Source: Blasia pusilla (taxonomy: Eukaryota). From it: 64,000 nt of DNA. Below, piece after piece: positions 3,181-32,420 of this stretch (the first letter of the stretch is position 1; every line of letters starts with the position of its first letter). The stretch lies in the NCBI GenBank assembly GCA_050084515.1, contig CM114271.1, positions 40,672,001 to 40,736,000 on the forward strand, in the 5' to 3' direction. A program made the translations under genes and the position numbers. The notes below the pieces were generated by a model. It made no database searches and had not been told where the DNA came from. It was given only the letters and a program-made list of their open reading frames with translations.

Positions 3181-3182
3181 GC

Positions 3183-3286: not shown

Positions 3287-3461
3287 ACTCGCCCCCCTAA
3301 CTGGCGGTTAGGTCCCTCTAACTCCCAGGTAGCCCTATACATCTACTACATGCTATACACCTTCTTGGGTGCCCGAATCAGAAGGCCGGGTGCTAGGTTG
3401 CCCCATCGTTAGTCGCACATCTATAATCCATATCATGCAAAGATCAAGTCATCTACCTCTC

Positions 3462-4899: not shown

Positions 4900-6290
4900 G
4901 CCACAAGCCTTGTGATTAAATCCCCCCACAATTTCAACGAGAAGGAGGAGGGGAGAAAATGATGGCTCAAGAAGGAATACGAGGACTTTGACCAATCTTG
5001 TTCTAAGGCGTTGTATCATTTTCGTGGTAACATGGTGATAACTTTTCTTTCTATCATTGCATGTTAATGAATATTTGGCCTCGCCTTGCCAATAAGTTCC
5101 TCCCCATTTTCAAAGGTGCAGATCTGACATGGAAGATCCCATACTAATACCAAAAATCAAAAGCCTTAATTAGGGTTTACGGTTTTTAATTCCATGTGTG
5201 AGTGATCATTTGCACTTTTTTCTTTTGCCATGTATTCCTAGGGTTGGGTTGCTCCCCAGGGAAAAGTATCATGATTTTTGGACTCTTGGCTGAGGAGGAG
5301 GGGAGAAAATGATGGATCAAGAAGAGGACGAGGACTTTGAGTAGTCTCGTTCCAAAGTGTTCTATCATTTTCACGGTAACATGATGAAATCTTTTATTTC
5401 CACCATTGGATGTTGATAAAACTTTGGCAAAGCCTTGCCAATACGTTCTTCCACGTCTTCAACGGTGCAGATCTGCTATTACAGATCCCATACTAATACC
5501 AAAAATCAAAAGCCTTAATTAGGGTTTACGGTTTTTAATTCCATGTGTGAGTGGTCATTTGCACTTTTTTCTTTTGCCATGTATTCCTAGGGTTGGGTTG
5601 CTCCCCAGGGAAAATTATCATGATTTTTGGACTCTTGGCTGAGGAGGAGGGGAGAAAATGATGGATCAAGAAGGAGGACGAGGACTTTGAGTAGTCTCAT
5701 TCCAAAGTGTTCTATCATTTTCACGGTAACATGATGAAATCTTTTATTTCCACCATTGGATGATAAAAATTTGGCAAAGCCTTGCCAATACGTTCTTCCA
5801 CGTCTTCAATGGTGCAGATCTGCTATTACAGATCCCATACTAATACCAAAAATCAAAAGCCTTAATTAGGGTTTACGGTTTTTAATTCCAGGTTTGAGCA
5901 GTCATCTGTAATTTTTTCGTTTCCCCTGTGTTCCTGGGGTGTGGGTGCCCCTATGGGAAAAGTCTCATGATTTTTGGACTCATGGGTGATGGGGAGGGGA
6001 GAAAATGGTGGATCGAGAAGGAAGACGATCGCAAGGACTTCATGTAGTCTTGTTCCAAACCATCTTGTCATTTTCATGGTAACATGGTGATAAATTTTTC
6101 TTTGCACCATTGGATGGTGATGAATATTTTCTTTATCATTTTCATTAAATCGTTCCACATCTTCAACGGTTTAGCTCTGCCATTTAAGACCCCTTATTGG
6201 CGGACACCTCCTTTGGGGTTTTCGATTTTTAAATCTATGTGTGAGTGGTCATTTCAAGTTTTTTCTTTTCCCTTTTGATCCTCGTGCTGG
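4900..6290. repeat. Tandem array of about four ~348-bp units inside the CACTA element
   Basis: GGGAGAAAATG(A/G)TGG recurs at ~4951, 5301, 5650 and 5998; GGTGCAGATCTG recurs at ~5115, 5464 and 5811. The two middle units are near-identical. Confidence 0.88.
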
Positions 6291-7049
6291 GGTGCCCCTC
6301 TGGTCAAAGTTGCGGCACACATGAGGAAAGCGTTCGGATCTATTTGCAAAATGGACGATGCGACAAAACACTAGGGTGCGTATTTTGTACTCCTGATTGT
6401 AACCACGTCAATGTGGCCGATTTGACGTTGAGAGTGAAAACTATATAAGTTTGGTTGCCCATATCTATTGTCAAAGGGCTCTTCTTGTAGTGAGATGGAT
6501 CCTAGGTGGCATTGCTGGTAATATCCTAGGTTGATGTGGCATATTTAGTCCTAGGTGGCTTGCTGCGTCAGAGCGGGCATGGGAGGGAATGGACACCCGT
6601 ATAGCATACAAACGTTTGGTGTTTGGTGCCCAAGTAAGGTGTGTTGTGTTTGGCGGGAGAGAGTGTGCACTCGAGTGGGATGGTCGGAGTTTCTCCAAGA
6701 GTGGGAAGTTCAAAGATTAGGGGATTGGGGAGGTCAGGAGGCTGAGAACAATTTGTTGTGAACGTTGTGAAGACTTTTACGCCTAGACCGCAAGCTCCGA
6801 GTTTGTTCTGAAGACTCTGCTCTCTGAAGATTGTTTCATCTTCTCAGCCGCGGTTAGCTCTCTCTCTCTCTCTGTGCCTTTGCGATGTTCTCTCTCTCTT
6901 TGCGCAACATCTGGAAGAGCCTTGCAAAATGACGTTCAACTTCTTCTCGGACTTCAAAGATCGCTCCTCTCTACAATGTTGTCTTGCTATTGACCCGAGC
7001 ATGTCCGAATAGCTTGGTGGCTCTGAAGGTTGAAACTTCCTACGATGTA

Positions 7050-7439
7050 CCGGTGTTGAAACTAGACCTACACTTTGTCGCACGCGCTCTTCATCTACAA
7101 ACCACTCATCGTTCACTTTGCTGACACTCCAGTTGAAGTATTGCAGGAGAATACTAGCTTCAGTCCTTGACAGGGAAAGGAAATTTGTGATTTTGGTCAT
7201 CGCTTCTTGTCGCTGGCGAATGTCCCTCTCATTGAGAATTGTGTAATTGGACTGAGGAAGCCTAGAACTCACATGAACGTCAAGTAAAGGGAATCATCGA
7301 AACCGTAGTCCGGCTCATCATCGTCATCATCACTGCCCATGGTATTCTCACTCGCCTTGTCATCCTCTTCATTCATATCATAGAAGTCCCCGTCTAATGT
7401 TCCATACCAAGCATCCTGCATTTCATCTTCGGAGTCCAT
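7050..7439 (-). pseudogene. ARI: Captured 5' fragment of an ARIADNE RBR E3 ubiquitin ligase gene
   Basis: MDSEDEMQDA...acidic tract, then a frameshift, then QSNYTILNERDIRQRQ...EASILLQYFNWSVSKVNDEWFVDEERVRQSVGL, typical of plant ARI N-termini. Truncated before RING1. Confidence 0.88.
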
Positions 7440-7626
7440 CGAGAGCGTCGAGAGCGTTTAGGGCGTACGCCAAGGTGTCTCCAATTCTAGGCGGGAAGAA
7501 AGCTTTTCGAATTCGAGTGGAGGTAGTTAGAAAATTTTGGGTGTTGGTGACTCCAAATAGATCTGAAAATCATGGTGTGACTGTTTAGAGTGATACCTTA
7601 GCCAATTATCGTCGATCATGTGGTGT

Positions 7627-7629
<3 letters not shown>

Positions 7630-7675
<46 letters not shown>
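7630..7675 (+). repeat. (GA)n microsatellite
   Basis: About 22 GA units, lying upstream of the ARI fragment as a CT tract on the minus strand. Confidence 0.95.
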
Positions 7676-7677
<2 letters not shown>

Positions 7678-7751
7678 GCAGGTGCCAAGCATTGTAGCCA
7701 GAATCTGTGAAGGAGATCGTTACAAAGTTTGAAGGATTGGGTTGCTGATAT

Positions 7752-8850
7752 TCAGTTCTGTTGCACATCATTGGGTCTTTTGATGAGACTTGTGCTACAA
7801 TGTGCACTTCTTTTCCACGATATAATGTAGAGCCCTAGTGCTAGTAAGACTGAACTGGAGGCTGCATATGGAAGCGTTGGGGATGTGTTTTCTTCTACTT
7901 TGAGGTTTAGAGTGGCTGTGTGCAGGCTGCTCTCCGAAACCTTGGAAGTCCAAAAAGTTGCTTTCAGCTCCCGCAAATTCTCCGTGATACTTAAAGTTGG
8001 AGCTAGCTGCAGGTTGTTACCAACCAAAAATGCATTCTTCAAGTGTTCCTCGAGTTGTACAAACAGAGAATTCTTAGAGTCATGCTTTTCATGAAGTAGT
8101 TGTGTTTGGCTAGTCATCTTGGCAATGTCCTCCCTCAATTGATCAATTTCAACATTTTTTTTCTCCACACTTCCTTGCAAACGGTCAAGCTTTGCATGAA
8201 GTCCTTCTGACTGTTGATAGAGCTCGCAAAATTTATTGACAGTAACTGTGAGCTTGTTGACATCGTTGCCGCGTGAAAGTTATGCTGCCTTCAAAGAAGA
8301 TTGCTTCTCCTCAATGACTTCCTTAAGATTTGCAACGTGCTCAGACAACTCTATTGCGTATTACTGTAACCAGCCATAGATTCCAATTGGGCGTCCAATT
8401 ATGATATTCTCACCTAACTTGACTGTATGTAAGCTTCAGTCTCTTTAGAACGTCCTACCTAAGCAAAAAAAATATTTTCAGCTTTCCCAACTTCTTCTTG
8501 CTTTAGGTGCAAGAGCGCTTCTAGATTGAGGATTTTCTCAGATAGAATCTCAACTTGTTGATGAGCCCCTCTAAGACCAGTCAGTTAAGATTCCAATTCC
8601 ACTATCTGCAACTGGCACTACTGCAACTCATTCTCAGTCTTCTCCAACTTTAATGCCAAGATTAAGTGCGATTCCTTCTCAGCCTCTATCCTACTTTGGG
8701 CATTCCTCAACTCCGTACTAAGCTGCATGGAAGTCGCCATCAAAACTTTGGCATCTTGACCAGCTAGGATTGCCTTATTCTGGGCATCAACCACCTCTGA
8801 AACCAACCACTCAACTTTCTCCAATTATGATATTCTCACCTAACTTACAG
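7752..8850 (-). pseudogene. Captured fragment of an unidentified long coiled-coil protein gene
   Basis: Heptad-like E/K/Q/L-rich frames (ORFs 8618-8824 and 7752-8180) interrupted by stops. Confidence 0.55.
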
Positions 8851-8929
8851 CACTTGGTTTCACAAGTAGATGAATCAAGTATATTTAAAGTAGTTTTTTT
8901 GTACTGTTTACATGTTCACAGCGATTCAG

Positions 8930-11311
8930 ATCGTTCGTTGGGGGGTACTACATGATGTGGTTGATGACACAGGTCGAGATCTGAAGAATGTGAGGGAGCA
9001 CTTTGGTGATGATGTGGCGAGACTAGTGGATGGTGTGTCAAAGTTAAGTCATATCAACCAGGTATGTCCCAACCTTGTTCATGCCTATTTCTGATAAGAG
9101 TTGGTGATTTGAAAGGTTTTTCTGAATACAAATTATAGGTCAAGTCCAACAGACATGCAAGGTCCTGTCCAGGAAAGAAGGCTTGCTGCAGATATATCTA
9201 GCAAGTGGAGGGATTAATGAAGATGTGAACAGGAAAGCAGAATCTTCAAATGTTTTTTGTAGCTCTGTAGGGCGGCGGGCTTTGCTGATTGTACAATCCT
9301 CGTATTTTGAACAAAATGAATAGAAAAGAATTCAGTGATCAACTGCAAATGTGGCTAATAGGTAGGGATCTCATACAAATCATAGTAGGTATAGAGGGCA
9401 AGGGGGTTCAAGTCAAGGAATATTCAACTGGTTTCCAAACTCTGATTGGTATGATGGTTTAAGCTTCATTCTCAGGACCTGTCTATCAAAGTGAGGAAAT
9501 GGAAATCCTTTGAACAGTCCGATGAGTTGGAAGAGCCGAGTTGGAGGGGCAAACGTGGTTCAAATAGACTTGTTATTAAGTAGTCGGTTCCATTCGCTAA
9601 ATTTCAAGCCCAACATCACCTTTTTCAAATAAAGTCGCCATTTGTTCTCCTTAAAATAATTCCCCATGTGAATTCATATGTTTCATAAGAGGAAATTTTG
9701 GGTCTATATTTGGGTATTGATTTACTATCTGGTACTCACTGCAACTTTTGAGGAGGCACGGAAGGATAACAGCTTGTCAAAATTCAACAGAGGCCGGTGG
9801 TTTGAGTCCAGCAGAGGTAAGTGCACCTTGTCCCCGTGAAGTAATGACTCTGTTTTGTGTGTCATCTCTTCATTTAGTATACAAGTCATGAGTAGACTTG
9901 TAAAGAACTTAAGACTTTCCCACTAGGGGAATGCTTTTTCGTTCCTCGGCCGACGGGTAACATTTTATCAAGATTTTTTTCAGGGTTTACTCTAATAGAT
10001 GGTCAAGAGTTAGCTGTTTAACTTTGGAGTCCAAAATAGACTTATCTCTTGGAGTTATGACAACCTCTAAACAGTGTAGCCTTGGTTATTTACTTGGCAA
10101 CCAGGTGGACAGTTTGCGCGTTATGCTACTGGGTAACATCAATGATCCTCGTGTGGTCCTCATCAAACTGGCCAATCGTCTACACAACATACGAACAATG
10201 TAAGTATCAGTAGAGGAAGTCTGGTTCAAAGTTCCCTCTTGATTTCAAACCAGCAAAAGCTCACTACTTTGGCAAACTTTTTACATACTATGAAGTACAT
10301 ATTCATGTCAAAGGACTTTCTTGGAGGATATCATGATGCTGATGGTCTTGATTGCATTCTGTGTGTAGTTATGCTCTCCCACCATCGAAAGCATATGTCA
10401 GAGCACAAGAAACTTTGGCGCTTGGTGCTCACCGGCATCAAGGCTTGGTGTGTGGGCGTGAAGGCGAGCTAGAAGATCTCTGTTTTCTTTGTCTTGCAAG
10501 TATGTCCCAAATTCTATTTCAGATGACTTTTCAGGTTCCCCACGGATGTCTTCTTGTCACACTTTGATGCGTGGGGGGTAGTCGGTGGGTGGTAACTAAT
10601 TCTAGTTATCACTAGTTTACGAGTTATGATGTATTGTTCTTTACTGGAGGCCCTCTCATAATGTGCCTCCAACCTGCGGTGCTAGCCCAAAAACTTTTGG
10701 AGACTACGAGCCGCACTAGCCGCCATATGGAGTCCACACAAAGACTGGAGGTATTTAAGGAGAATGACCAAAAGAGCTAAACGAAGAGCACTACTCTATG
10801 GTGATCTGGTGCAAGAGGAATTGGAACCCAAACCGGATCGAAGATGAGGAAGAGTTGACAATGAAGGTGTGCATATCTCCCATAGCCTTGCAAAGTAAAA
10901 GATGAAGGTGTTTTTTCAGAACAGAACACCTTTAACTACATTTTGTCATCGGGTTGAAGGTACTTGGGTCGTGCAATATTCATGGTGTCGATCTGTGGGG
11001 ATTGCATCCAGATCATTTCAGATCATATGTTACTTATTCTCATTGCCCACCTTTGATGCTGAACTGAGAGAAAGCTGGTGTACTTACATGTTGATTGGTG
11101 ATCAACAATAATGCAAGATCTTCTTGAAGCAGTTGTGCCATTTGATATATTATTAGATCGTAACAGGCGCAGTGCTAGACTTGGTTCCCCTGGAAATCCA
11201 GGAGAGATAAGTAAGAAGAAAACAAAGGTGATACGGGATGCTGAAGTTGCCCTTGCTACTTTGGGTGCCTATGAGGATGCTCTTGACAAGGAGCTTCTTA
11301 TTTCAACCTCG
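8930..11311 (+). pseudogene. RSH: Captured multi-exon fragment of a plant RelA/SpoT homolog (HD hydrolase region), with introns
   Basis: Exons ending in GT donors: GVLHDVVDDT...VDGVSKLSHINQ (to 9061); ~9745-9816; VDSLRVMLLG..DPRVVLIKLANRLHNIRT (~10105-10199); YALPPSKA...ELEDLCF (~10369-10499); DLLEAVVPFDILLDR...ELLISTS (to 11311). Confidence 0.88.
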
Positions 11312-12446
11312 TAAGTCCTCTATTCATAGTGTCAAGGGACATGAGCTCCATTGTCCAGATACAAGAGAAAGATGTTGCATGTGGCAGTGGTTGGCTGAAT
11401 CTTAACGTGAAGAGAGCATCTTTCGGCTTTTAAGCCAAGAAGTTGTGCAAACATCGCACGAAGTATCAGGGAGCTCCTTGATTATTTTACTATGAACAAA
11501 ATTGGAATGAAGGGATCTTCCTAAGAAGGAATGTTTCCGCACATGACTAAACCAAAAGAACTGACCGCTCAAACTTCCCTGTGATCCATGTGCTCAAACC
11601 TCTGCCTCCAACTATTATATATAAATAGTTTGGAAAAGAGGATTTCAATAATTCAAATCCACTAATTCTTGCACCGTTCAAAAGGCATAATATACATTCC
11701 AAAGTATCCAAAATTTATTTTCCCACTAGTCATATCGATATAATTAGCACAATACGATTCAAAAACTGAAGTAGTAAGCTTTTCAAGTTCTCTCTAGTCA
11801 TAATTGTATGACTCATGCAGTTCTGTTGCAATGACTACATCATTTCCGCAACTTGCATAGTCATATCTTTGTGACTAAACCAGTTGTGTCCGCTTCTATA
11901 GTAGTCATGTAACTCTACTCTTCTAGTCATAGTACATGACTACATGAGTCCATACCAACATTTCAATAAAATAAAATGACTACATGAGTTGTCAACTATA
12001 ACTGAATGGAGTATATTTTGGTGCATTTTGATAGGATATTCTGAACTTTTGCACACCAACCATGACTAAAGGAGTCGTTGGTGGTAACTAGAAAAATATA
12101 CACATATGACTAGATGAGTCGTACTCAAGTCCACATCATCATTGACATGTCACAACAATAGTCCATGTCATCAGTGACACATCATACTAAATAGTCCATG
12201 TCACTGATGATGTGTGATTATTCCACGTCATCTTAGTGACATGTCAATCATGGCCTCATGACTACACCCTCGAGTCATATACCAACCTCCACCTAAGCTG
12301 ACTATCCTAGTTAGCCTAGTCGCCAAACAAATATGACTTGGCTTTTGTGTCTAAAGTAGTCGTCAGTCATTGTTAGTCGTGGTATCTAAAGTATGACTCA
12401 TATGAGTCATATAACCTAGTCATAAAACCAGGGATTTCTTCTAGTG

Positions 12447-14560
12447 CTTGGAGAAGTGCTCCACCATCACCAACACATATCGATGATGTCGTACAGTCAA
12501 CGGTAATGATCCCGCAAAGTCCACACTCCAACGGTAACCCAACCCCATAATAGGCAAGGGGTGTAATTGTGGTGTAGGGACATTAAATGATGCCCTCACC
12601 CGGTCACAAACCATACAACGTGACACCAATCTGCCTGCACCGAGTATGCATGCCACGCCACCAATATCGCCAAGGAGTAAGCTATACGTACGCTTTACCC
12701 CAAAATATCCCAACTCCTCATGGGCATGTCGCACAATGCGCTCTCTCTGAGCCAAATGTGGCACTACTCGTACTCTACCATCCTCCCACACGCGGAGAAT
12801 ATGTGTTCCCTCCATTCGATACCTCTTAGCACGTTGAAGAACACGGTCTCGCTCCTTGGCACTCACTATGCTTGGCACCCTACTGGTCCGTAGGAACTCC
12901 AACACCAACGCATCATCATGAATATCACGCTGATCCACCACCATCTCCAACCTTAGGATCTCAAGGCTGGCCATCTACCCCTCGACTAGAGTAAGATATC
13001 ATGTGGTCCTCCATACTAGAGTCCACCCTAACCAACATAAAAAGGCGGATGCATGCCAACCGACACCATCTCCTCATCAACCTCGCCATGCCATCTAGCC
13101 CCGATTGTATCCTCTTGGCTAGTACATGGGTTCCTACTCAATCCATCAAGATCAAGGTTGGCAACTCCAGGTCTATGTACCACCCGGAAGTCATACTCTG
13201 TAAGATAAGAGCCCACCGTGCAAGCTTCCTGTAAGCTTCTCCGACTCCATCAACCACTTGAGCGGTGGTGATCAGTAACAAGGGTAAACGTGTGCCAAAC
13301 AAGTAACACCTAAAGTGTGCCCACCCTCACACACCTCTTGCCAAGCACTCTCCCTCATATGAACTATAGCGACTCCATTTGCATTATTCGAACGACTTGC
13401 ATAGGCCACCACAAACTCCATGTGCTCATCATCATGTTGTGTCAACACCGCTCCAAGTCCCAACCTACTCCAATCGTGTGTAATCTGAAATGGGCGCCCC
13501 CGATAGGTCTCCTCAAGATAGGCGCCGCCACCAACTGGGCCTTAAGCTCCACAAAAGCTCTCTCCTGATCATCTCCCTAGTGCCACTCTTGATCTGATTT
13601 CAGCAATTGGTTCAAAGGCTTTGCCATAGCACTAAATCCCTTCACATACCTCCCATAGTAGTTCGCCAATCCCATGAATGCTCGAACTCTACTCACATCT
13701 ACCGGACGCGGAATAAGTGCAATAGCCTCCACCTTTGCTTGCTGAACTCCCAAACCACCTGGATAGATCACATGACCCAAGTACTCAACATCCTCATGGA
13801 AGAACTTACACTTTCATGGATGCAAACGTAGACCATGAGTTTTCAACCGCTCAAACACCATCTGCAAATGTATCTGATGCTCCTCCACCGTGTTACTGGA
13901 CACCAAGATATCATCAATGTAACACCGAACAAAATCCAACCCTGCTAGGATCCTGTCCATCACTCTTTGAAACTCGGCAAGTGCATTCTTCAACCCAAAG
14001 GTTAAGAATTTCCACCGGTACAAAAATCCTTGCCATGAGAGTTGACACCCCAAAATCTTTGTCTTGGCCTTGTCACTCTCCCCAATCGGCAATTGATGGT
14101 ATCTCGCCGAAGATCCAAAGTACTGAAAATCTTTGCTTGTCCCACCACATCAAAGATCTCTCAGTGTAGGCATGGCATACCTATCGGCCTTGGTTTGCCG
14201 ATTGATAGGACGGTAATCTCCACACATCCGCCTATCCGTAGTTGCCATGCATATCCTTTTTAGCAGGCATGACAAAGTGGGCGATGCATACTCTCCATGG
14301 GACAACTCCACTAATCCAGCCTCCAAAAGGTCCAACGTCCTACTCAATCAGGTCCCTCTCCATATCACTATATCGGTAGGGACGACGGAAGATTGGCGTA
14401 TCACTAGCCAAATCAATCCGTATACGGGTCCAACCAGAGAACCCAACTCCTTCATGCTAAAGGCAAAACAACTCCTATAAGCACGTAGGAACGTGTCAGC
14501 GTCGTTTCTCACCTCCCGTAAGCTTGGGCCCAAGTAATGGCTCCCAAGTCTCCTCCACTG
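12447..14560 (-). pseudogene. Family-2 RT, RNase H and integrase N-terminus (frameshifted)
   Basis: MCGDYRPIN; FGLKNA; FVRCYIDDILV; VRAFMGLANYY; GLGAVL...VVAYASRS; EYDFRVVHRPG; HAHEELG...CMVC zinc finger; RWSVDFAG. Confidence 0.92.
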
Positions 14561-14839
14561 GCATACTAGAGGGAGAGGACGATGCCATTGGCTGCTACCC
14601 AACCCCCTCACAAGATGATACACCCTTAGCTACACCATCATCTCGAGCAAATAACTCCTCCACCAAAGATGAGCAACCAACTCCACATGCCCGACCATTA
14701 CATCCCATTTACTCCAAGGATGCAAAATACTACTCTCCTCGCCTGACCAATGCCTCTACCGTCCCGGTAGCCATCGAGCTCATTACAAGGGGTGGAAGAC
14801 CCAAAGACATAGTCCGAAGTCGACACTGCTCGGCCATAC

Positions 14840-15800
14840 CAAGACTCAAAATCCAAGTCAAACAATTCAGGTCCATGGCCTGACCCAACACATGACGTCG
14901 TGAAGCCTCAGAAATAGAAGCAAGCAACCGCCACGCCGAGTAGTAAATCCCATCGCACGCTCTCTCTCATCGGCGTTAGGCTCCACCAACGCCGCACATG
15001 AGAATCCCATACAAGCCCCGGACCACCTTCCCTGTAGGCATGTGACGCGGGAAAACTCACAAATGTGGGTAGTGCCATCCTAGGCTGGCCCACACGATTC
15101 ACCACTGCCATGGGTGACCGATCAATAACCCTCACCACTTGAGAAAGTCGCCAAGATATCAAGATACTATCCACTGTAAGGCGAGGATCCCGCCAGACCT
15201 TTGCATCATATGCTCGACGTAGAACCTCCCTAGGCAACAAGTTTGTCCACCACAAGCGTGGGCGATGTGCACGTGAGCCAACTCATGGTTTGCATCCAAC
15301 AACACCGCTGGTCCAATCCAAGACCGCACCTCATGAACACTCGCCATCATCCGGTCCGAGTGTCACCCAACAATGGAACATTCTCGAATGTAAGCTAGAG
15401 CACACGTGCGATGAACTGAAGATTCGTAACACCCGTAACATCTCCCAAAACAATCGAGACCTAGGGTCATGTAATCCCTCACCACGACCAAAGACGTGTA
15501 TGACCACGACATGGCCATCCAAAGCAATCACCAAATCCACAGGACCAATTCTCTCAAGGTCCCTGCGCTTCAACAATGCAATGTGTGATGGTAAAGCACG
15601 CTGGTACCCACGAATAGCGATAGCGGCAACAACTCAGGATATCTCGCATCAATCGACCAATATGTCGGGATGAGACTCTGGGCCATCTCATCTCACTCCA
15701 CATACACGTATCTCCGACAGAATACCGGCCTGCAACACTGCGGACCAAACCAAGTGCTAATCCCACCAAAGAGATCTAACACACAAATGCCCTCCGGCGG
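14840..15800 (-). pseudogene. DNMT3-like C5 cytosine methyltransferase domain within family-2 Pol
   Basis: Motif I VLDLFGG (~15763-15783); IV GWPC (15509-15520) followed by GLHDPRSRLFWEMLR; VI ENV (15377-15385); VIII GSRAHRPRLWWTN (~15241-15280); IX/X ERERAMGF...SRRHVLGQAMDL. Motifs lie in several frames because of indels. Confidence 0.88.
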
Positions 15801-16189
15801 ATCTTTGCCATACAATGGGTGTAGTATCCAAAGGGATAACAATCGGGCTGTAGTAGGAGTCCGCCGTGGGGCCTCCTCTTCCTCGTGAGGTATATGACCT
15901 CACACCAAGCCTCTTGCACTAGGCGTCGCCTCTGCCGTAGTGCACCGCTGAACTCCAAAGTGGCACATCCAACGATGAGGATGCCTTTGCTGCAAAAATG
16001 GGGACCTCCTCTACATCCTCATGCGCAGGAGAATCCATAGCGAGAAACATTACCCTCCAAAAAGTCTCTGGCCAAGTGACTACTCCACTAAAACCGACCC
16101 CCAGATGCTAACACTTTGTTGGGGAAGACCCTCTGGTCGAGCCCCAGGAAATAAATCTCACAGAACTTGGCTCATACGTCCATCCCCGG

Positions 16190-16600
16190 ACTGCCAACCT
16201 GGTCTATAAGACGTTGTCTCAGTCCGAGAATCCATCTGAAAACCCATCGGGTACAACATCGCTCCTCCAACTAGTACATCATACGACTCGGTGATGTCAC
16301 TACCGCAGATACTCCCAACCGGGAGCTATCATCGCATGATCTGGTCTCAACTGCATGTAAAACTTCTCCGTGTCATGAATTGAGACCTATCATTGGCTCC
16401 TCCAAGTGATGTTTGAATCGGAATGGGCAAGGCTCAAGCTCGACCTCCGAATACCCAAACCAATACATGCCGCCTTTCCCAACATCAAGGTTGGGCACCG
16501 AGTCTAACAAGACTCTATCTGGTCTATACACATCTGTAGGACTCACCAATCGAAAGATCCCACTCCGGTTGTCCAACATACATACACCAGGTGTAAGCCT
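16190..16600 (-). pseudogene. Family-2 aspartic protease
   Basis: RPDRVLLDS(G) active-site motif and ESYDVLVGG; the family-1 counterpart reads VLLDSGAQPLMLG. Confidence 0.75.
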
Positions 16601-17149
16601 CTCACGATCAATGGTGGCCGGGTGGTAATGCATCCATCTTCGCCATTTCTTTGCCCGCCAAGTAGCACCGGTACTCAATGCTACTCTCGACATAGAGGAT
16701 CGCTCCACCGCAACACCCTCATCCACCTCAACACGTGTAGTTGTAACACCCCACGTTCACACAACGTGGTCGCTAATCAAATACAAGAGGTAAGTCAACT
16801 CCTAAAGCCATCGACTCCGTGGCCGAAAACAATGGGGATCCTAACACCGAAGTTGCCATCCGCAATCTTGCATTGGATGTTGCATCCGTGTCTACTACAC
16901 GCGATGTAGATGCCCTCGATCTCCACTGTCGGCTCAATAGGTCGCGTGAGGAACCATGGATGGAGTCCTAAGCACCTCGGACAACAAGAATGACTGGGAA
17001 GCCTAGCCGCCTCCCGGCCTCACCCCTCTGTGGGTCCAACTCCACAAGAGCACCACGTGGCTCGACGCTCGAGTGGCTCTCAGAATCTGCGGTGATGCCT
17101 CAACCTATGCCGCACTCGCCATATAAGAGAGATCATCCCCTCCATAAGA

Positions 17150-18628
17150 GGTGGAAGCCCCTGCTCCCGAACGATCTATCTTTGGATACCACCATAGTAG
17201 CCAACTCGCTCCAATCGCTCAATCTGGCACCATAGTCGACTCTGTCGTAGTGGTAGGGGTAGCCACCATAGGCTCTCCAACCATTGGTCCACCTCTACCA
17301 CCCCTACCACCTCTACCACCTCGGCCTCTTGGAGCTACTCCACCACGGCCACGGCCTGATCTCAACTCGGATGAAGATCAAAGCAACGCTCTCGAGGATG
17401 ACCTAGTCTCCCGCAATGATCACACTGTGAGTTGGGGCCGATCGAGGCCCATCCTCCAAAGTCCGTCTCCCATCCTCTTGGGGACAAAACTTCCTAACAT
17501 GATCACCTCCACATGTCCAACATGATCGTCCTGCTCTGGGGCAGCAAATGAAGGCAATGGTCTCTACACAAATATCCCTCTAGGACTTGGCGAGGTCGCG
17601 TGTACCCCACGACTCCCACTCCTACTACCACCACCACTACTACGAGGCGTGAGGTGGGCGGTGAACAGAGAAGTAGTAGTTGTATCCCCCATGAATGCGG
17701 ATGTCACCACTCTCTCCTTCACCATGTTAAGCTCAATCTTCTCGAGATAGAGCAAACACATGGGTCAATGTGGGTGAATCATCACTCATAAGAGTAGCAT
17801 CACGCACCCTACGGCGCAAATCTCTGTCCAAGATCCCATACCAAAACTGGACGCCTGATCCTCAATCACACCTGGTAATCGAAATCAAGCGTCGCATACG
17901 CGTGTATGCCTCACGAAGACTCTCACCGGTCTTTCGCTCAAAGTCTTGAAGATTCCTCAACTTCTCCGTCTTCACTCCTTGATAGTTCTTCTTCAACCTC
18001 TTGAAGAACTCGCAATCAAGGCTAACGATGGTGGGGCACTAGTACCTCCACTAGTACCCCCACTAGTACCTCCACTGGTACCCCCACTCCGGCTCGTACT
18101 CGTACCACTCAACGTCGGGCTGGCTGGCATAGTAGGAGCACTACTACCAATACCACCATGGGTGATAGACACATAGCCTGGAGACCAATATTGTCTCCAC
18201 GCCTCAATCTCAGCAACATGGTCTTTCCCAAACTCATGGTAATTATCCATGGGTGGTCCTTCCAAGTGCTGAAACAACCCCTTCCAAGCCAAGAAGGGTG
18301 TAAACAACGTGACGTTCCGCAACATCTGCATAACACACCACTTATCAAACTCCTGCATGAAGTCCTCCAACTCAATGGTGCCCACTGCACCCGAGTATCG
18401 TCGTGGGCCCTTCATGGCCCCATATCCACCGTCCATGTCCCAAATCAATGGAGCTGCAACACTCAATAACAACGTAGAAGACTCGGTGTTTGGAACACCC
18501 TTGTCCTCCTCTTCATCAACCGTCGGAAGTGGAAAAGGTAGCCGATACCTAAATCCACTCCGTGTGAAACCACCACTGTCCGCACCACGGTCCCCAACCA
18601 GACCACCCGACTGCCCCGTGATGACCAA
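17150..18628 (-). pseudogene. Family-2 gag with zinc-knuckle remnants
   Basis: GPRRYSGAVGTIELEDFMQEFDKW...FQHLEGPPMD, homologous to family-1 gag at 28174-28434; ESLREAYTR; RG-rich linker; SGGT tandem repeat at ~18040-18085. Confidence 0.8.
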
Positions 18629-20155
18629 CGCCGATGCCGCACCACCACCAAATTACCACCACCAAATTACCAAGTGACGTCGATGTCGCTATACTATTCT
18701 AGCTCTACTAGCTATGGGTGTAGGCAACCTAACTTGTCATCACCACAAGAAGTCTCCCACACTCTACTCGTCATCCCTCCAGCCTCACTACCGGTAGCAC
18801 ACAAGAGTAACACTACTCTGGAAATCAACGTCAACCCTAACAATGGGCGCGCAAGCAAGAAGCACGATGGAGGGATCCAAACACAGAAATCAACGACAAC
18901 CCTCCAATCGCAAATGGAAATCAAGGTAACACAATCCACCAAACGTGGTGCCCCTCGAATCCACAAAACCCACCACACAACTCTAACGCAATAGCTACTC
19001 GCGCCGGGTCGATGACGTGCTAGTCGAACTCGCAAAGACCTGAAAATATCACCTGCATGGAGAGGCTACATCGTACTATGCGCTAGAGGTACATCAACCA
19101 AAAACTTGAGATGCATAAAGCGCCTAACACATCTCGAACAAAGACCAAATGAGCTACAACAAATGTACACTAGCATAGTTAAGAACTCAGAGATTAAGCG
19201 TCCTCAGCGAGAATAGCCCAAAGATGGGTGACCAGTTATGCAAAAATCAAATCCCAAATCCTGCAAAAATTGCCTCACGCCCAAGCAAGCAAGCTTGCTT
19301 GCTTGCTCCTTGCTCCTTGCTCCTTACTCCGCCTCTCACGCCCACTCGCCCCGAGCTACCACGAGTTGCCTCGAAGCCTCGAAGCCTCGAAACGCCGAGA
19401 AATGCTCGAGACATGCCCCTATCGTCACGCTTCGCCATGATTCGCCATGATTCGCTATGGAGAGAGGTCCAACCAGGGCGCCCCCAACGGGATAGGCGTC
19501 TCCAACAATGAACGAGTCACCAACCAACCAGACCCTCCGATCCGCTGTCCACCATAGCCAGACCTTGAGCTAGTCCGCGAAATTTCGATCAGAAATTACT
19601 TCACAAATACGTGACCGAAATCAAATCTGTTTCAATCAGAATTCAATTGACCACCATAGCTATCTCCCCACAAAAACTCAGCTACAACCGAGCTCCGTAC
19701 TCCGAGCTAAAAATCGGACAAACTTGCTGTCCATACACCTCTAGAACCGCAAACCGGCAGCCGCTTCCGCCAAGTTTCATGCACGCAGAAATCAACGCTC
19801 CACGCACTCGGCGAGATAGCTTCACATGAGATCACAGTACAAGTAGCAATAGGAACCTCTCACCCGATCTGGATGAACTTCAACAAAGCTTCCGCACTCC
19901 AAGCTCTCCACATCAGAAAACTGTCCAACACGAACCAGAATCTTCAATGCTTGATAACTTCCAACTACCTTGACGAAATCCGGCTATCTACTACGCGTTG
20001 GAAAGCTCTCAGCAAGGCGCTTCTTTCCCAACCAACCACGCACCTGATTCACACCTCCAACATAGGCAACAAACCGCGAACATCCACGGCTGAGTACACA
20101 ATCAGCCCTAACCAGATCCTACTCATCTACAATCGAATCTACCATCGATCTACTC

Positions 20156-20167
20156 CAGTTCTTTGAG
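20156..20167 (-). promoter_or_regulatory. Putative self-priming PBS of family-2 element
   Basis: CTCAAAGAACTG abuts the 5' repeat A and is the exact reverse complement of the minus-strand sequence at 20342-20331, about 30 nt downstream of TATAA. Confidence 0.8.
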
Positions 20168-20535
20168 TGAAATCCGTGAAAGACCTACTGTCCAAAAACA
20201 CGTTTACAATCACATAAAATTGAGCCAAACCCACTCCACGATGGGAGAATCTAGGTCGAAGCTTGCGGGAAACACCATAGCCAAGAGCTCTACTCACTAC
20301 CAAGGCTAACTCCCAACGCAACAGGCTCAACTCAAAGAACTGACTGTTCTTTGAGTGCACTCCACCTTATATCCTCCAACCTAAGAGCGGGCCCTACTGG
20401 GAAACTCACCCCCAACTGAGTAACCCCCAACCCTATGTATGGAACCGCATATCTACCAAGCCACTACGGTCCTACATAAGGAATGGCCTCTACTAGCACA
20501 CTATACTCTACGACATAATCCGTATGGTCATGACA
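20168..20535 (-). repeat. Repeat A1 (5' LTR core) of family-2 element
   Basis: TGTCATGACC...GGATTTCA; TATAA at 20371-20367; copy at 2813-3180. Confidence 0.93.
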
Positions 20536-24165: not shown

Positions 24166-24519
24166 TGTAACCATCCTCTATTAGTCATAGTTAAGTTAGA
24201 ATCTATGACATGAAGCGCATAAGTGGGAAAGAATCAATCAAAAAGAGAAAAAGACAAGATACATGAGATAAAGATGAGAGTGGGACCATAGGTTGGTGAA
24301 AAGGAAGATAAGGATGAGGTTGAAGAAGATCACGTTGGGACATTAGAATCCAAAGGAGATTCTCTCATGCTATGAGAGTAGGACATGTGACATAAGGATA
24401 GGTAGAGTTAATTTGTCTTCATTGTACCTATCTCTAAGTATATAAAGGAAGAGGAGAGGTCTTGAGAGCATTCTACCTTTGAGCAACTCTAGAGTGGTTC
24501 CGTGAGTTGGAGAGTTACA
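24166..24519 (+). repeat. 3' LTR of chromovirus
   Basis: TGTAACC...GAGTTACA, preceded by PPT AAATAGGGGGAGG. Confidence 0.93.
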
Positions 24520-24799: not shown

Positions 24800-25760
24800 C
24801 CTGAAAATCCATGTCAAGCACTTCAGATCGATTGCCTGAGCCAAGATATGACGTCGTGATGCCTCTGATAGTGACGGTACTGCCGTCACTCTTGTGGGGA
24901 ATCCCATCACTCGCTCTCACTCATCGACATTGGGCTCCACCAACCTCTATACTTGGTCATCCCAAACCAAGCTAGGTCCGGCCTCCTTGAATGCATAGGA
25001 AGCAAGAAAACTCAGCCGTGTGGGAAAGGCTGCCCGTGGCCTGCCAATTCTGTTGATCACAGTCAACGGCGGTCGATCATCTAGCCTCACTGCCTGGGAT
25101 CGACGGCCTAGATCCAATATAGAATCCACCAACAAATCGGAGGGGCGCTCTACTCTTGCATATGCCCTCCGTAACACCTTGTGTGGTACCAAGATGGTCC
25201 ACCAAAGATGTGGGCGATGTGCTCGTGAACCCCCACTCGCCGCATCTAACAACACTATCGGGCCGATCCATGTGCCTCATGTGCACTCGTCACCACGCGG
25301 GACCTCGAATTGCCCAAAATTGGCACATTCTCCAAAATGTATGGTGGAGAACGAGGCTGATGCTCCTGTAAATGTCGCAAGATCCGCATCATCTCCCAAA
25401 ACAACATGGACCGAGTGTCAACTAACCCGCTACCTCGTCCAACACTCGATTGGCCCTAACACGGCCAACCAGCAATGACCAAGTCTATGGTCCCTACCTG
25501 CTCCAAGTCCTACGCCCCCAACAATGAAATGTCCCTTGGTAGGGAACTTTGGTAATCCTGAATGGCGGACGCAGACAAAAAGTCAGGAAAATGAAGGCGT
25601 AATAGCACCACATGGTGAAGTGAAGCGCGCCATGCAACATCATCAATCTCCACATACAGGTATTGCTGCACACGCACTCCAGTGTGCAAAAACGGCTAAC
25701 CCAATGTTGATCCCTCCAAAGAGATCCAACACCCGAATACCCTTCTCTGGGATGCACCAC
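24800..25760 (-). pseudogene. DNMT3-like C5 cytosine methyltransferase domain within family-1 Pol
   Basis: KGIRVLDLFGGINIG (I); IDLVIAGWPC*G (IV, 25459-25470); ILENVP (VI, 25324-25332); LLDAASGGSRAHRPHLWWT (VIII); ERVMGFPT...SRRHILAQAIDL (IX/X). Confidence 0.9.
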
Positions 25761-28700
25761 ACAATCGAGGTGGTGTCCAAAGGGGTTATAGCAACATTCC
25801 TGCCTACTTGGGGTTCCTCTGACCCGTCATTCTCGGGTGCAAGCTTCTCGGTCCACGCAGTCTGCACATACATAGTGGCTAAGCGTCAAAGCTTCTCAAT
25901 CGAGACCCAAAGAGGCACCTCTCCTCCACAGACTGATGCGGCTACCATGACACTCCTCTCCATAGAAATGTCAAGAACAGGAGTATCCTCTGCATGGACA
26001 TGTCCCTCAATCAAATCACTAGGCCAAGTGATGGCAGTGCTAAATGCTGCTAAGGTCACCATCTCTCTTGGCCGTCGCTCGATCACTGCACCTGTGAATC
26101 AAACGAGTAATGAGCTAAGGCGCCCATCACCTAACTGCCATCCTGGTCTGTAGGACGCTGACTCCTTCGAGTAATCCAAGGAAAACCCCATCGGGTATAA
26201 CACTACTCCACCAACCAACACGTCGTAGGACTCTGCATCAGTCACTATCGCCTTGGCTCGCACCACGGACTCATCTGTAGGATGTCCCGGGAAAATCCTC
26301 ACCACGACCTCATGTCAGGTGATATACTATGTGGTACTCGCTCCACCCAAGGATGTCTATATCCAAAATGGACAACGCTCCACATCGGCTCTCGTCAAGC
26401 CCAATCCTCTGAATGACGCTTTCCCCAACATCAGGGGTTGCGCTCCTGAATCCAACAAGACGCATTGCGGACTAAAAGCTCTACCTCCAGGACTCACCAA
26501 CTAGAAGACCTCTCCTCGGTTATCCAACAACACAACACCAGGAGAAACCATGGCACGCTGTATTTTGGGTCTAGCAGGCATCTCCGCCATCCTACCAGCC
26601 GCAACCTGTCATGAATCTGGCGTGGACGGCCCTAGCATCCGCTCCAAGGATAAGTCCATCACCTCCTCTACAATCACCTCTGAACGTGATACAAGAACTC
26701 CAACTCCACGCTCACATAGCGTAGCGGCCAGCCAAAAAACCTCGGCGGGCGTACCTCCCAACGTCATAACATCGAAAGCAGAAAATAAAGGAGCACGGTA
26801 CACAACAGTGGCCACCCCCAACAACTTGCTCGACACATGCCCGTCCTGAGCATCAGCAATAGAAGTCGTCGCACTCGCTTCTCCCATCGCCCTTCGTGCG
26901 TGCACACCAACAACATTATCAACTCTCCAGGAACTCTGATTAGGACCCATCGATGGGGTCCTCATCGCGTCGGACAATGTGAAAGATTGAGGAAGCCTAG
27001 TCTGTTTCCTAGCTTCTCCTTGCTGTGGATCCAACTCTACGGTTGCTCCACGCGTCACAACTACGGCAGCCTCCATCTGGGCAACCCCGCACATCCAACC
27101 AGGATCCTGCATATATCTATGGCTGATGTCAATGCCATGGATCTGGCATCGGGTAATCTCAATGCCATAGCAGAAATCTGCTTCTGTAGTTGATGTATAT
27201 GAGCAGCCATCCTAGCCTACCGCTCGGCGTCTCCCTCTATGCGTCTAGGTGGTGGGACTCTACCTCCTCCACGGGCAGCTCCACCACCCTGTCAGGAAAC
27301 TCCAGCTTCTCGTCCCCCAACGGGACCACCTGGTGCACGATCTCTAGGCCCACCCAGACCGGCTACTTGCTTTGGTGCCCTCTCTGGCCCTCGGTCCAGA
27401 TGTAACTAAGGATGTAAATTGAAACACCTAGCGCGTGTATGACCATAACTCTGATAATAGTCACACTGATAACCTCTTGGTGTAGCACCATCTCCTCCTC
27501 CATGCTGAGGAAAACGTCCATGAACCTGACGAGTGCAATCGCGTTGATGATGGGCTCCACCACATAACCAACAAGTAATGGTAGGCGGCTGCTGTTGAGC
27601 CGTATATGAAGGCGCAAGTCTCTGTGGCACCGCCTCTCGATATCCTCCATGAGCTCGTGGTGCCACAGTTGACCTATCTCGGAGTCCACGTTGCTGCACA
27701 GGTGGTGCAGACAATCGTGATTGCTCTCGCCCAGAACCCATGGTGGCTACGCTCTCCTCTGCCATGTTGCCCTCAATGTTCTCAGCGGTCCTAAAAGCAT
27801 CTTTCAACGTAGGGGAGGTGTTCATAAGAAGCACCCATGTCCACAGGGTCTGGTCGAGCATCGCGTACCATGATTGGATAGCGTGAGTCTCTATAGAGGC
27901 ATTGATAAACCGGCGCAGGCGAGTGTAAGCCTCACGCAAACTCTCACCCGGGCGCCTCTAGAAGTCGTGGATGCTTCGCAACTTCTTCGTCCGTACCCCT
28001 TGGTAGCTCGCCCTTAACTCAACAAAGAACTCAACCACGGGGTTGAACCTAGGACGAACCCGACTAGATGGTGCAACTGCTCCAGTGCGAGTGACCCCTC
28101 CTAAAACATCACTAGTGGAAGAGGAAGTAGCCTCTCCTGACTCCTCCTCCTCATCTGGGAATGGCTCTGTCCATTACACATAGTGTGGGTCATAGTAGAG
28201 TCGCCATACCTCAATCTCTTGTGCATATTTGTAGGAGAACTTATGGTAATCATCCATGGGCGCCCCCTCTAAATGCTCGAACATACCATTCCATGCTGTA
28301 ACTGGGTTGAACTCTCTAGAGTTCCTAGCCCATTGTGAATCATGCCAACTCCTAAACTCCGCAATGAAGTCATGTACCTCTATGGTGCCTATAGCACCCG
28401 AAAACCTACGCAGTCCTCTACCCCGATCGTCCATCTTGTATGCCTAACTAGTAGGACCACTCAATGTGTACGGTGGATCACTAAAACAATAATTCTCTAC
28501 ACGCTCCCCCTTGTCTGAAGACGACACCAAAGGAGATCAAGGTGGTCTCTCACGCGGAGACCCTCGAAACCTCGTACCACTCCGGGTAAACCCTCCAGAG
28601 CTACTCTCAAGTCCACTAACTCGCCTCTCAAAATCCCGAAAGGACGCCGTAATGGCCCTTGTGCCCCTCTCACACGATCACTCTCAATCTTGTGAGTAAT

Positions 28701-30127: not shown

Positions 30128-30469
30128 TGTAAAATAAGATCTAATCTCTCTCACAACACCATAGTTCTCACATGTGTGCACTCTCATATGTCTCTCTCAA
30201 TGTCAAACCAAACCCATTCTCCTAATGAGAAGTTTGGGTTAGACACACAAGGCAAGCAAGACCATAGCTCCGCCGCCTCGTGCTAAGAGGTTCAACAAAG
30301 AGAGAATGAGCTCTCAAGCTCTCTCTCCTTGAGGTGTACCCCTCCCCTCTCCCAAGCTCTCTCCATGGTAACCTATGCTCCCAAGTTACCTCCTTGGCTC
30401 TTGACCTCATATAGGAGGTCAAGGGTCACGTACCAAAAATAGAAAGTCAATCATATACTCAAAATGACA
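30128..30469 (-). repeat. Repeat A1 (5' LTR core) of family-1 element
   Basis: TGTCATTTTG...TTTTACA on the minus strand; a homologous inverted copy lies at 30653-30669 + 31973-32296. Confidence 0.85.
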
Positions 30470-30652
30470 CTTACCTAGAATGGCACTCTACTAGATCTCA
30501 CCGATCTTATAGAGCGCCTTCTTGAGTAGTGGAGGACACGCTCAGGAGGTCAAGGATGACCTGTTGAGGCCTCAGGAAACCTGAGAGAGCAGGTTTCCCC
30601 TTCGTTTTGGCTCATTTGGAGCCATATTGAGGAACTTACTATTTTAGGTAAG

Positions 30653-32420
30653 TACCATTTTGAGTATATTGTAATGTATAAAAAGTTTACAATTTGATCT
30701 TTTTACAATAATTTAATGAGTTGGATCCCCAAGAGAATCACGATTATGTGGAAAGAGAGTTCAAGAAAGCATTTATCTTGTAATAGTTGTAGTTAAGTGT
30801 TTACAATTCAGATTCAATCACTTATCAGTGTATTCTTCTCTCTCTTAGTACGAAGATTTCGTTCCTCGATTCTCTCTAGTGGAATTGAATTCACGCTTAG
30901 GAAGATCTTCACTCAACATCAAAGAACCTCACAGAGATCTCAACAAGAAGCTGGCTTCTCCTACTTTTGGAACTCAATCCGTCTAGGCAGGCTACTCTCT
31001 GTCGAACAGATTTCTTACAACTCCGCGTTGATTATTCTAATGATGGAAGTATTCTCCTGATTCACTCTTCACTTTGCAGATCCAATAAGAATTCTCAGAC
31101 ATAGGCATTGCACATCAGAATGAAGAAATGAGTGCTTTACTACTCCATCAAGAATGAGAAAGCTTCAAAATATTATACAAGCTCGAGAGGGTACTACTCC
31201 CTTGCTCGGACCATTCCTACAGCATAAGGACTTCGTGAAAGAATGATGAGGATAGCTACTTTCATGCTTCTTAAATATCTTCTGAGGCAGTAGTAGGTCC
31301 AAAGATCTCAAGCGTCTCTTACAAATCTATTGTCTATTGAGAGTTTGTAACTATTTTGATCTACGGTTCTTTTATCTTTTCCTATGATCGCTATAAATCC
31401 ACTGGGCGTAACGGTCCTAACTTCCTATCTGGTCCAAAAAATCACGCCTCTTCTTAGCCTAACTACTCTAACGGTGTGCTACTTCAAATCACTTCGAGTC
31501 TTAGCTTCATTTCACTGCTAAGTCTCGACTTCTTCTTCTTCCCTTGAGGACAAAGCTCTTCTTGAGGACGGAGCGTTGCATTCTTCGCTCTTGTTCTAGG
31601 TGCTTTATCTTCGTGCTTTCGCTGAAGAGCGATGTACTTCTTCCTCTTCGTCTTCATCATGCTTTGTTCAAGAGCGAAGCACTTCATAAAAAAGTTCTTA
31701 ATAAGGCTTTGTTGTCTTTTTCAAGCTTCGCTCTTAGTCTTTAGACTTCGTTTCTGCATTTCCACCTCCTCTAAGGCAAATCCTTGATTTTCCACCTCTC
31801 TACCTTGTCCTAGGAGTTTTATGATCCATTTCAATATTACTCATTCTTCCAATTCACAAACATAATATCTAAAACAGTCTTGTATATACAACCTTCACTT
31901 CATAGAATCTGTATTCCTTGAATCAAAATGTATAAATCTCTAAAAGTACAAAATTATGGGTATCACATATATGGTCGACTTTCTATTTTTGGTAAGTGGT
32001 CTTTGACCTCCTATAATAGGTCAAGAGCCAAGGAGGTGACTTGGAAGCATAGGTTACCATGGAGAGAGCTTGGGGGAGGGGAGGGGTATACCTCAAGGAG
32101 AGGGAGCTTGAGAGTTCATTCTCTCTTTGTTGAACCTCTTGGCACGAGGCAGCGGAGCTATGGTCCCTTGCCTTGTGAGTGTAACCCAAGCCTCTCATTA
32201 GGAGAGTGGGTTTGGTTTGACATTGAGAGAGACATGTGAGAGTGCACATATGTGAAAACTATGGTATTGTGAGAGAGATTTGATCTTATTTTATTAGAGA
32301 TATTTTGGTACTTCTTGTCTCGTTGTTTGGATACCATGAGTTAGCATGGGATTGTGTGTGTTTGTGTGTGTGTTCGGTGACAACGCTATATGTTGTGTAG
32401 CGATGTGTATGCGTATGACA
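30653..32420 (+). mobile_element. Solo A-B terminal remnant of a family-1 element, interrupted by a solo LTR
   Basis: A = 30653-30669 + 31973-32296. It is followed by ~120 bp ending CGTATGACA that resembles family-2 repeat B. Confidence 0.78.
30670..31967. mobile_element. Probable solo LTR (1298 bp) of an unrelated LTR retrotransposon
   Basis: TG...CA ends with perfect 5-bp TSD TATAT (30665-30669 and 31968-31972), cleanly splitting the family-1 repeat A. Confidence 0.8.

Follow-up and report, generated by a model that had tools for sequence, protein, structure and literature searches.

Does a DNA methyltransferase (DNMT) inside a retrotransposon reflect an isolated gene capture, or a module that the element has kept? 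This question is raised by a stretch of 64,000 nucleotides from Blasia pusilla (assembly GCA_050084515.1, contig CM114271.1, positions 40,672,001 to 40,736,000 of the forward strand). The whole stretch is called the window here, and positions are counted from its first letter. Two Ty3/Gypsy long terminal repeat (LTR) retrotransposon copies in the window, named e1 and e2, carry such a domain. An initial annotation had regarded e1 as belonging to a second, diverged family with the same DNMT at the same position, maintained by purifying selection. Our analysis indicates that the DNMT module of e1, a dead Ty3/Gypsy copy, is a DNMT3-like domain between protease (PR) and reverse transcriptase (RT) that was very probably captured once and kept under purifying selection.

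The methyltransferase domain of e1

When the 64-kb window was translated in six frames, each of the five peptides by which the methyltransferase had been recognized was found a single time, and always on the minus strand. They mark the following features.

25712-25738, minus strand: IRVLDLFGG of the e1 DNMT (motif I, VLDLFGG, at 25712-25732)
25459-25476, minus strand: IAGWPC of the e1 DNMT (motif IV, GWPC, at 25459-25470)
25321-25338, minus strand: ILENVP of the e1 DNMT (motif VI, ENVP, at 25321-25332)
25196-25228, minus strand: SRAHRPHLWWT of the e1 DNMT (RAHRP at 25211-25225)
24896-24916, minus strand: ERVMGFP of the e1 DNMT (MGFPT at 24893-24907)
24803-25790, minus strand: predicted DNMT3-like C5 cytosine methyltransferase domain of e1, a pseudogene with 4 in-frame stops and 2 frameshifts

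Motif I, SRAHRPHLWWT and ERVMGFP share one reading frame, and IAGWPC and ILENVP lie in another; the domain therefore contains two frameshifts. One was located at about 25271 by a frameshift-aware alignment to an intact relative, and one lies near 25.70 kb, just after motif I. Such an alignment also placed the in-frame stops at 25510-25512, 25456-25458, 24947-24949 and 24917-24919. The second of these is the stop that the initial annotation had read as 'PC*G', and relatives have Q at that place. RAHRPH is found in e1 in place of RAHRPR. The catalytic motifs (FxGxG, PCQ, ENV, RxR) do not stand in an open frame in e1, and they are intact in the relatives P0001 and P0004, two of the family proteins that were collected and numbered here.

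The piece 25255-25599 (minus strand), translated with X at the stops, matched the Pfam family PF00145 (C-5 DNA methylase) with E=3.4e-11 and 43.6 bits, the cut-off being 22. The other two pieces of the domain gave no Pfam match on their own, and among raw stop-to-stop open reading frames (ORFs) of at least 75 aa no DNMT fragment scored E<=0.01 in Pfam. The intact liverwort protein P0001 aligned to 25689-24632 (tblastn, E=1e-107), and the best matches of the e1 piece came from the liverwort Calypogeia fissa, whose transposon-borne DNMTs reached 69% identity (E=4.5e-61). The methyltransferase motifs in e1 are real and beyond chance, and the domain is a pseudogene.

Type of methyltransferase

A profile of 19 family members (alignment A1) was searched against solved structures. 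The best matches were DNMT3A (1.3e-18) and DNMT3B/3C (about 1e-17), followed more weakly by plant DRM (2.6e-9), DNMT2 (5e-6) and the bacterial enzymes M.HaeIII/HhaI (about 1e-5), and no DNMT1 chain was found among the solved structures at E<=1e-3. A single-sequence search of the solved structures ranked the enzyme types in the same order, and a search of the ESM Atlas returned generic PF00145 clusters only. The motifs follow the ordinary order I-IV-VI-VIII-X, as in host DNMT3A/3B/3C, with no DRM-type rearrangement. In alignment A1, the P of PCQ, the E-N-V, and the H and P of AHRP(R) were invariant or nearly so.

Unlike the host enzymes, the family domain is embedded in Gag-Pol and has low identity to DNMT3A, whose match to P0004 was weak and covered part of the domain (E about 1e-8). 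In the relatives scanned, Pfam detected neither a PWWP nor an ADD domain, and no intron-like structure was seen. Judged from these sequence comparisons, the domain is a DNMT3-like catalytic domain without the reader domains of the host enzyme.

Position of the domain in e1 and e2

The remaining parts of e1 and the insertion that interrupts it are listed below.

27185-28438, minus strand: gag of e1, with a CCHC zinc knuckle CWLCGGAHHQRDC at 27535-27573; 3 stops and 6 frameshifts
25733-26869, minus strand: protease region of e1, with LLDSGA at 26441-26458; 5 in-frame stops; aligns to residues 17-396 of the Marchantia protein P0127
24520-24802, minus strand: DNMT-RT linker of e1, cut at 24520/24519 by the nested insertion
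1-743, minus strand: reverse transcriptase of e1, with YIDDI at 97-111; runs on past the window start
799-24519, plus strand: composite nested insertion G, Ty3/Gypsy, with 353-bp LTRs at 799-1151 and 24167-24519

The nested insertion cuts e1 283 nt after the DNMT. Residues 540-694 of P0127 align to 25270-24806 and residues 696-904 to 743-1, while residues of P0001 up to 677 align down to 24632, inside the linker. The homology between e1 and e2 extends to about 24560 and picks up again at about 798. Because the P0127 coordinates continue across the gap and the e2 homology abuts the junction, e1 is taken to be split by a 23.7-kb insertion. The 353-bp repeats are 94.6% identical (19 differences); since a tRNA-iMet-like primer binding site TGGTATCATAGC follows the 5' repeat and a purine tract stands before the 3' repeat, they represent the LTRs of plus-strand G. 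No clean 5-bp target-site duplication was found around G or around e2.

From gag to RT, e1 has accumulated 15 in-frame stops and 8 frameshifts, and several of the stops fall where relatives carry R or Q codons. It contains PR and RT, the remaining pol domains being beyond the window. The e1 element is a dead, very old minus-strand Ty3/Gypsy copy that was cut in two by a later insertion.

The second element, e2, was 'family 2' of the initial annotation and lies inside G. Its parts are as follows.

2813-20535, minus strand: e2, whole element
18436-17200, minus strand: gag of e2 (CCHC)
about 16907-15783, minus strand: protease of e2
14847-15839, minus strand: DNMT of e2; 13 frameshifts and 1 stop
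14546-13073, minus strand: RT and RNase H of e2 (RT PF00078; RNase H PF17917/PF17919)
12938-12444, resuming 4458-3452, minus strand: integrase of e2 (PF17921, PF00665)
4459-12446: 8-kb insert that splits the e2 integrase
3468-3602, minus strand: PHD finger at the C-terminus of the e2 integrase (PF00628, E=2.3e-10), aligning to the integrase-PHD part of P0147

The LTRs of e2 (20168-20535 and 2813-3180) are direct repeats of 368 bp with TG..CA ends, and are 97% identical with 11 substitutions and 0 indels. Neither a convincing primer binding site nor a target-site duplication was seen for e2. Its DNMT motifs are VLDLFGG at 15762-15782, GWPC at 15509-15520, ENVP at 15374-15385 and RAHRP at 15259-15273. 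The full order of e2 on the minus strand is gag-PR-DNMT-RT-RNase H-integrase-PHD finger, which includes the pol order of Ty3/Gypsy elements (protease-RT-RNase H-integrase).

Both e1 and e2 thus show the order gag(CCHC)-protease-DNMT-RT on the minus strand, with homologous protease and RT immediately on either side of the DNMT, so the two families do keep the same DNMT at the same position. Open frames of the same order encode P0127 (Marchantia) and P0163; in the latter, a single open frame holds the CCHC at 530, DNMT at 978-1226, RT at 1421-1575 and integrase at 1895-2061. These arrangements bear on the notion that the domain is a host DNMT3 pseudogene lying merely beside retrotransposon debris. 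The region is indeed a dense transposon nest with at least four levels of nesting. However, homologous protease and RT adjoin the DNMT in both copies, relatives carry the DNMT in an uninterrupted frame with gag, RT and integrase, and the PWWP, ADD and intron-like features noted above were not seen in the relatives scanned; a host pseudogene is scarcely credible.

The decay of e2 has a peculiar form. Almost all of its breaks are indels of 1-2 nt, with 57 frameshifts against 3 in-frame stops, while the older e1 shows the opposite pattern (8 against 15). In PR, DNMT and RT of e2, 19 of 37 frameshifts lie within 2 nt of a CpG, where 9.5 are expected (P about 0.0005). The frameshifts are mostly outside homopolymers, and no indel separates the two LTRs. 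Compared with e2, contigs of other copies from public sequencing runs show many gaps, and nearly all contigs of one run, X2, are without two letters at 15521, a site called as a +2 frameshift in e2. The indels may predate integration, or may be assembly errors at methylated CpG.

Divergence and selection between e1 and e2

The initial annotation had seen no similarity between the LTR and leader regions of the two families, and this was borne out: blastn gave no match at E<1e-5, and the best local alignment scored 16, with shuffled sequences averaging 14.4 and reaching 18 at most. Nor did the gag regions show DNA similarity (blastn, E<1e-5). The coding DNA is substantially different, as had also been proposed. 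The DNMTs of e1 and e2 share 65% nucleotide identity by blastn, or 0.64 in a frameshift-aware codon alignment, and 58% amino acid identity over 284 aligned codons, and the RTs are 74% identical in DNA and 72% in protein.

For the codon alignment, e1 and e2 were each aligned to P0127 with a frameshift-allowing dynamic programme, and codons sharing a guide residue were kept. The resulting dN/dS ratios are rough, because dS is saturated. For the DNMT, the Nei-Gojobori ratio was 0.23 (284 codons, bootstrap 0.15-0.32), with 0.28 by LWL85 and 0.13 by YN00, giving a range of 0.13-0.28 over the three counting methods. The RT gave 0.15 (Nei-Gojobori, 202 codons, bootstrap 0.08-0.22; 0.10-0.19 across methods) and the protease region 0.24 (Nei-Gojobori, 346 codons, bootstrap 0.13-0.39; 0.25-0.31 across methods). 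By these ratios, the DNMT was constrained to much the same degree as the protease region and a little less than RT. Because both copies have decayed neutrally since, the figures understate the constraint that once acted. Maximum likelihood (ML) ratios were set aside, as dS values of 11-16 for DNMT and PR represent saturation.

These values agree with the purifying selection on the DNMT that had been postulated from its motifs. One could suppose that motif conservation is the neutral leftover of a passenger DNMT, or that the copies have diverged too little to reveal selection, and it is true that both are pseudogenes and that saturated dS makes the ratios imprecise. Neutral-like divergence had itself been named as the observation that would speak against selection. 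The bootstrap upper bound of dN/dS for the DNMT is nevertheless 0.32, pN is 0.26 against a pS of 0.64, and third codon positions differ twice as often as positions 1 and 2 (0.53 against 0.27). The domain is moreover intact in open frames from several genera. A neutral passenger is accordingly very improbable.

Phylogenetic analysis of DNMT and RT

Trees were calculated for 57 sequences, of which 49 have RT before DNMT and 8, including e1 and e2, have DNMT before RT, by quick searches under the LG+G4 model. The DNMT and RT trees were congruent: the 8 PR-DNMT-RT sequences formed one clade in both (SH-aLRT 99 and 99) with the same inner split. Within it, e1, e2 and Marchantia grouped with support of 100 in the DNMT tree and 99 in the RT tree, and their sister in both trees was a clade of Closterium and P0163 (87 for DNMT, 100 for RT). 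Since DNMT and RT share a branching history, the DNMT was captured once, before the families split, and was then inherited with the element. Each domain order occupied one side of a branch in both trees, which suggests a single event, either a move of the module or a second capture.

End branches were 1.9 times as long for the DNMT as for the RT in e1, and 1.8-2.5 times as long in the intact Closterium and P0163 sequences. As the ratio of e1 resembles that of the intact sequences, there is no sign of earlier relaxation in its lineage.

The trees also speak to the alternative that the two families took a host DNMT3 independently, the shared position being convergence. Repeated capture of DNMT3 by unrelated retrotransposons (DIRS and Gypsy) is documented in the available text of de Mendoza et al. 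(2018, PMC5890265), and the wider family is divided between two domain orders (69 against 17 of 86 proteins). On the other side, the DNMTs of e1 and e2 resemble each other (58% identical) and transposon-borne DNMTs of other species (56-76%), the match of DNMT3A to P0004 is weak, and all 8 PR-DNMT-RT sequences form one clade with one inner split whichever tree is taken. Independent nesting among host genes was not seen, in trees from which host DNMT3 genes were absent. Two separate captures are thus highly unlikely. Congruent trees together with low dN/dS uphold the view of the initial annotation that this is a kept module rather than a one-off capture: there was one ancestral capture, and purifying selection followed.

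Distribution of related elements

The intact Calypogeia fissa relative P0004, used as query, retrieved 157 proteins of comparable length, together with 32 that were longer. The named sources were Marchantia polymorpha, M. paleacea, Riccia sorocarpa, Sphagnum troendelagicum, S. tenellum and S. fallax, and the rest were metagenome contigs. A search of every representative of 1.84 billion clusters found 3619 at E<=1e-3 and 198 at E<=1e-30, many of them polyproteins of 1000-3400 residues. Thirty cluster representatives that were looked up added Closterium spp., with both domain orders, and Scenedesmus sp., with the order RT-RH-DNMT-INT-PHD (RH, RNase H; INT, integrase).

DNMT and RT occurred together in 86 of the 309 family proteins collected, 17 of which had DNMT before RT (PR-DNMT-RT) and 69 the order RT-RNase H-DNMT-integrase. 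A PHD finger stood at the end of 14 of the 22 long relatives scanned, including P0146, P0159, P0186 and P0203. Identity to any collected DNMT was at most 61% for e1 and 76% for e2. One relative, P0032, is encoded on a 2.4-kb contig that carries the NCBI label 'Candidatus Obscuribacterales bacterium' (metagenome-assembled genome); because of its kin, this contig is probably eukaryotic and was binned with a bacterium.

Among the public runs listed as holding such sequences, none is recorded as RNA. Two that were presumed to be RNA contain contigs 90-99% like e1 and e2, but as their RNA label is a guess, the contigs say nothing firm on expression. In run X2, the summed contig depth over e1 and e2 was 10-80 times that over the G-specific part, which is not a copy number but suggests many similar copies.

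These searches point, at somewhat less than even probability, to an old streptophyte-wide lineage with the order gag-PR-DNMT3-RT-RH-INT-PHD (Closterium, liverworts, Sphagnum) and a much larger sister group with RT-RH-DNMT-INT-PHD that reaches the chlorophytes (Scenedesmus). DNMT3 would have been captured once, moved within pol and been selected since before land plants, and the lineage would still be multi-copy in Blasia pusilla.

Comparison with known retrotransposon methyltransferases

The Gypsy-DNMT3 kind was already described in 2018 as KnitGypsy-Dnmt3 of Klebsormidium nitens (de Mendoza et al., 2018, PMC5890265), and the same argument for selection, with Ka/Ks < 0.2 among copies, was made for it there. 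A 2026 preprint cites 'streptophytes (Gypsy-DNMT3)' as a known case in the part available (10.64898/2026.05.21.726589). Both e1 and e2 have a C5 methyltransferase domain inside gag-pol, as defines Gypsy-DNMT3. The copies in the window are further members of this known kind, and the wider distribution is a lead.

KnitGypsy-Dnmt3 is likewise a Ty3/Gypsy LTR element of a streptophyte host with a non-rearranged DNMT3-type methyltransferase inside Pol, and is intronless and multi-copy with conserved catalytic residues. Unlike e2 with its ordinary TG..CA direct LTRs, it has a DIRS-like repeat layout (PMC5890265), and the closest named relatives of the present elements are from liverworts, Sphagnum and Closterium. 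A kinship of the two is presumed from the published account. The available text of PMC5890265 gives no domain order or PHD finger for KnitGypsy-Dnmt3. Its species table credits Physcomitrella with 9 DNMT genes and Klebsormidium with 33, and Marchantia is not among the species it names.

SymbioDIRS-Dnmt3 and SymbioLINE-Dnmt of Symbiodinium are also retrotransposon C5 methyltransferases with purifying selection and congruent DNMT and RT trees, but they belong to DIRS elements with a tyrosine recombinase or to LINEs, occur in dinoflagellates and represent separate captures, according to the same text (PMC5890265). EpiLTRs and DAM-LTR retrotransposons are LTR elements that combine a DNA methyltransferase with chromatin-reader modules; they differ in carrying an adenine methyltransferase, a DNMT4-related DNMT and a chromodomain, where the present elements have one DNMT3-like domain and a PHD finger (10.64898/2026.05.21.726589, as far as available).

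In the full-text literature searched, with subscription journals and bioRxiv supplements outside the search, we found no description of a DNMT-carrying Gypsy element in bryophytes, Closterium or chlorophytes, nor of two domain orders of such elements. For a PHD finger on a Gypsy integrase, the literature yielded only a general remark, in the available part of PMC8557442, that Chlamydomonas transposons commonly have PHD fingers as accessory domains.

Weight of the evidence and possible function

Several points weigh against the reading of the module given here, its proposed function included. Saturated dS of 1.4-2.3, with ML estimates running to 11-16 for DNMT and PR, underlies the roughness of the ratios, and selection was measured on one pair, the two genomic copies e1 and e2. 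The protein-guided, frameshift-allowing codon alignment could bias dN downward, above all for e2 with its 13 DNMT frameshifts. The trees were made without host DNMT3 of land plants and without Klebsormidium sequences, and no Klebsormidium-named protein appeared among the 30 cluster representatives looked up or in any search. The designation 'DNMT3-like' was derived from E-values against animal and plant enzymes of solved structure. For e1, no 5' LTR was found, and the 3' half of the element is outside the window. Finally, the KnitGypsy-Dnmt3 enzyme produced no methylation in yeast, a result that its authors call inconclusive in the available text (PMC5890265).

What would the domain do in an active member? 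By the proposed mechanism, the DNMT would be translated within Gag-Pol, released by the element protease, and would methylate DNA de novo. CG sites in the cDNA or the new insertion of the element itself would probably be its substrate, as is proposed in the available text of PMC5890265. Release by the protease with self-methylation of element DNA is a tentative idea, rather less probable than not. The e1 copy in the window itself carries out none of these functions.

The DNMT might instead have been selected for another role, such as in polyprotein or particle structure, on an RNA substrate, or in host methylation that alters silencing. The dN/dS ratios speak for selection but not for a particular substrate; KnitGypsy-Dnmt3 showed no activity in the yeast assay mentioned above, and by the end branches the DNMT evolves about twice as fast as RT, all of which leaves room for this. 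Its catalytic motifs are, however, kept in intact relatives (alignment A1), the nearest solved enzymes are de novo DNA methyltransferases, and two related SymbioDIRS-Dnmt3 enzymes methylated CG de novo in yeast, as reported in the available text (PMC5890265). Another role therefore seems unlikely, though not negligible.

Chromoviruses are Ty3/Gypsy elements with a chromodomain at the C-terminus of the integrase. The present elements resemble them in having a histone-reader module fused to the integrase C-terminus, but this module is a PHD finger here and a chromodomain there. The PHD finger may steer integration via histone H3 tails.

Other features of the window

The composite insertion G seems to be internally inverted: the RT is read from the minus strand at 2353-1847, but RNase H and integrase from the plus strand, from 22158 onwards. 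In protein coordinates these halves join (residue 476 to residue 471 of P0146), and 1486-1846 is repeated inverted at 22168-21811 with 93% identity. The apparent inversion (1847-22124) could be a misassembly.

Within the 8-kb insert of e2 (4459-12446), a tandem repeat of about 350 bp occupies 4943-6310, its copies being 70-83% identical. The insert also holds ORF fragments of UBA_ARI1 at 6847-7293 (minus strand) and of HD_4, a RelA/SpoT-type HD domain, at 9961-10200 (plus strand), which may be captured host gene pieces.

An inverted repeat pair at 30130-30457 and 31968-32293, of 328 bp and 91% identity, flanks 1510 bp and has TATATG... ends. The pair was considered as a 5' LTR of e1 and ruled out, being inverted rather than direct and without TG..CA ends. 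The stretch 30130-32293 may be a foldback or terminal-inverted-repeat transposon.

PIF1-like helicase fragments lie in three plus-strand ORFs at 53376-54845, within a low-GC region (PF05970, E=9e-22 and 1e-17; Pif1 2B domain, 1e-13). They may represent a Helitron remnant or a decayed gene.

Implications

Retrotransposons with their own de novo methyltransferase invert the usual view of methylation as a matter of host versus transposon, and few lineages are recognized so far. The window adds two dead copies to them, and the searches suggest a large kind that is found in Closterium and in model bryophytes, Marchantia among them, has two domain orders and usually combines the enzyme with a PHD finger on the integrase. 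If the old streptophyte lineage is real, such elements could add de novo methyltransferase activity to bryophyte genomes. If the kind is indeed this large and widespread, there are tractable hosts for testing transposon-borne DNMT3, and studies of bryophyte methylomes would have to count transposon-encoded enzymes.

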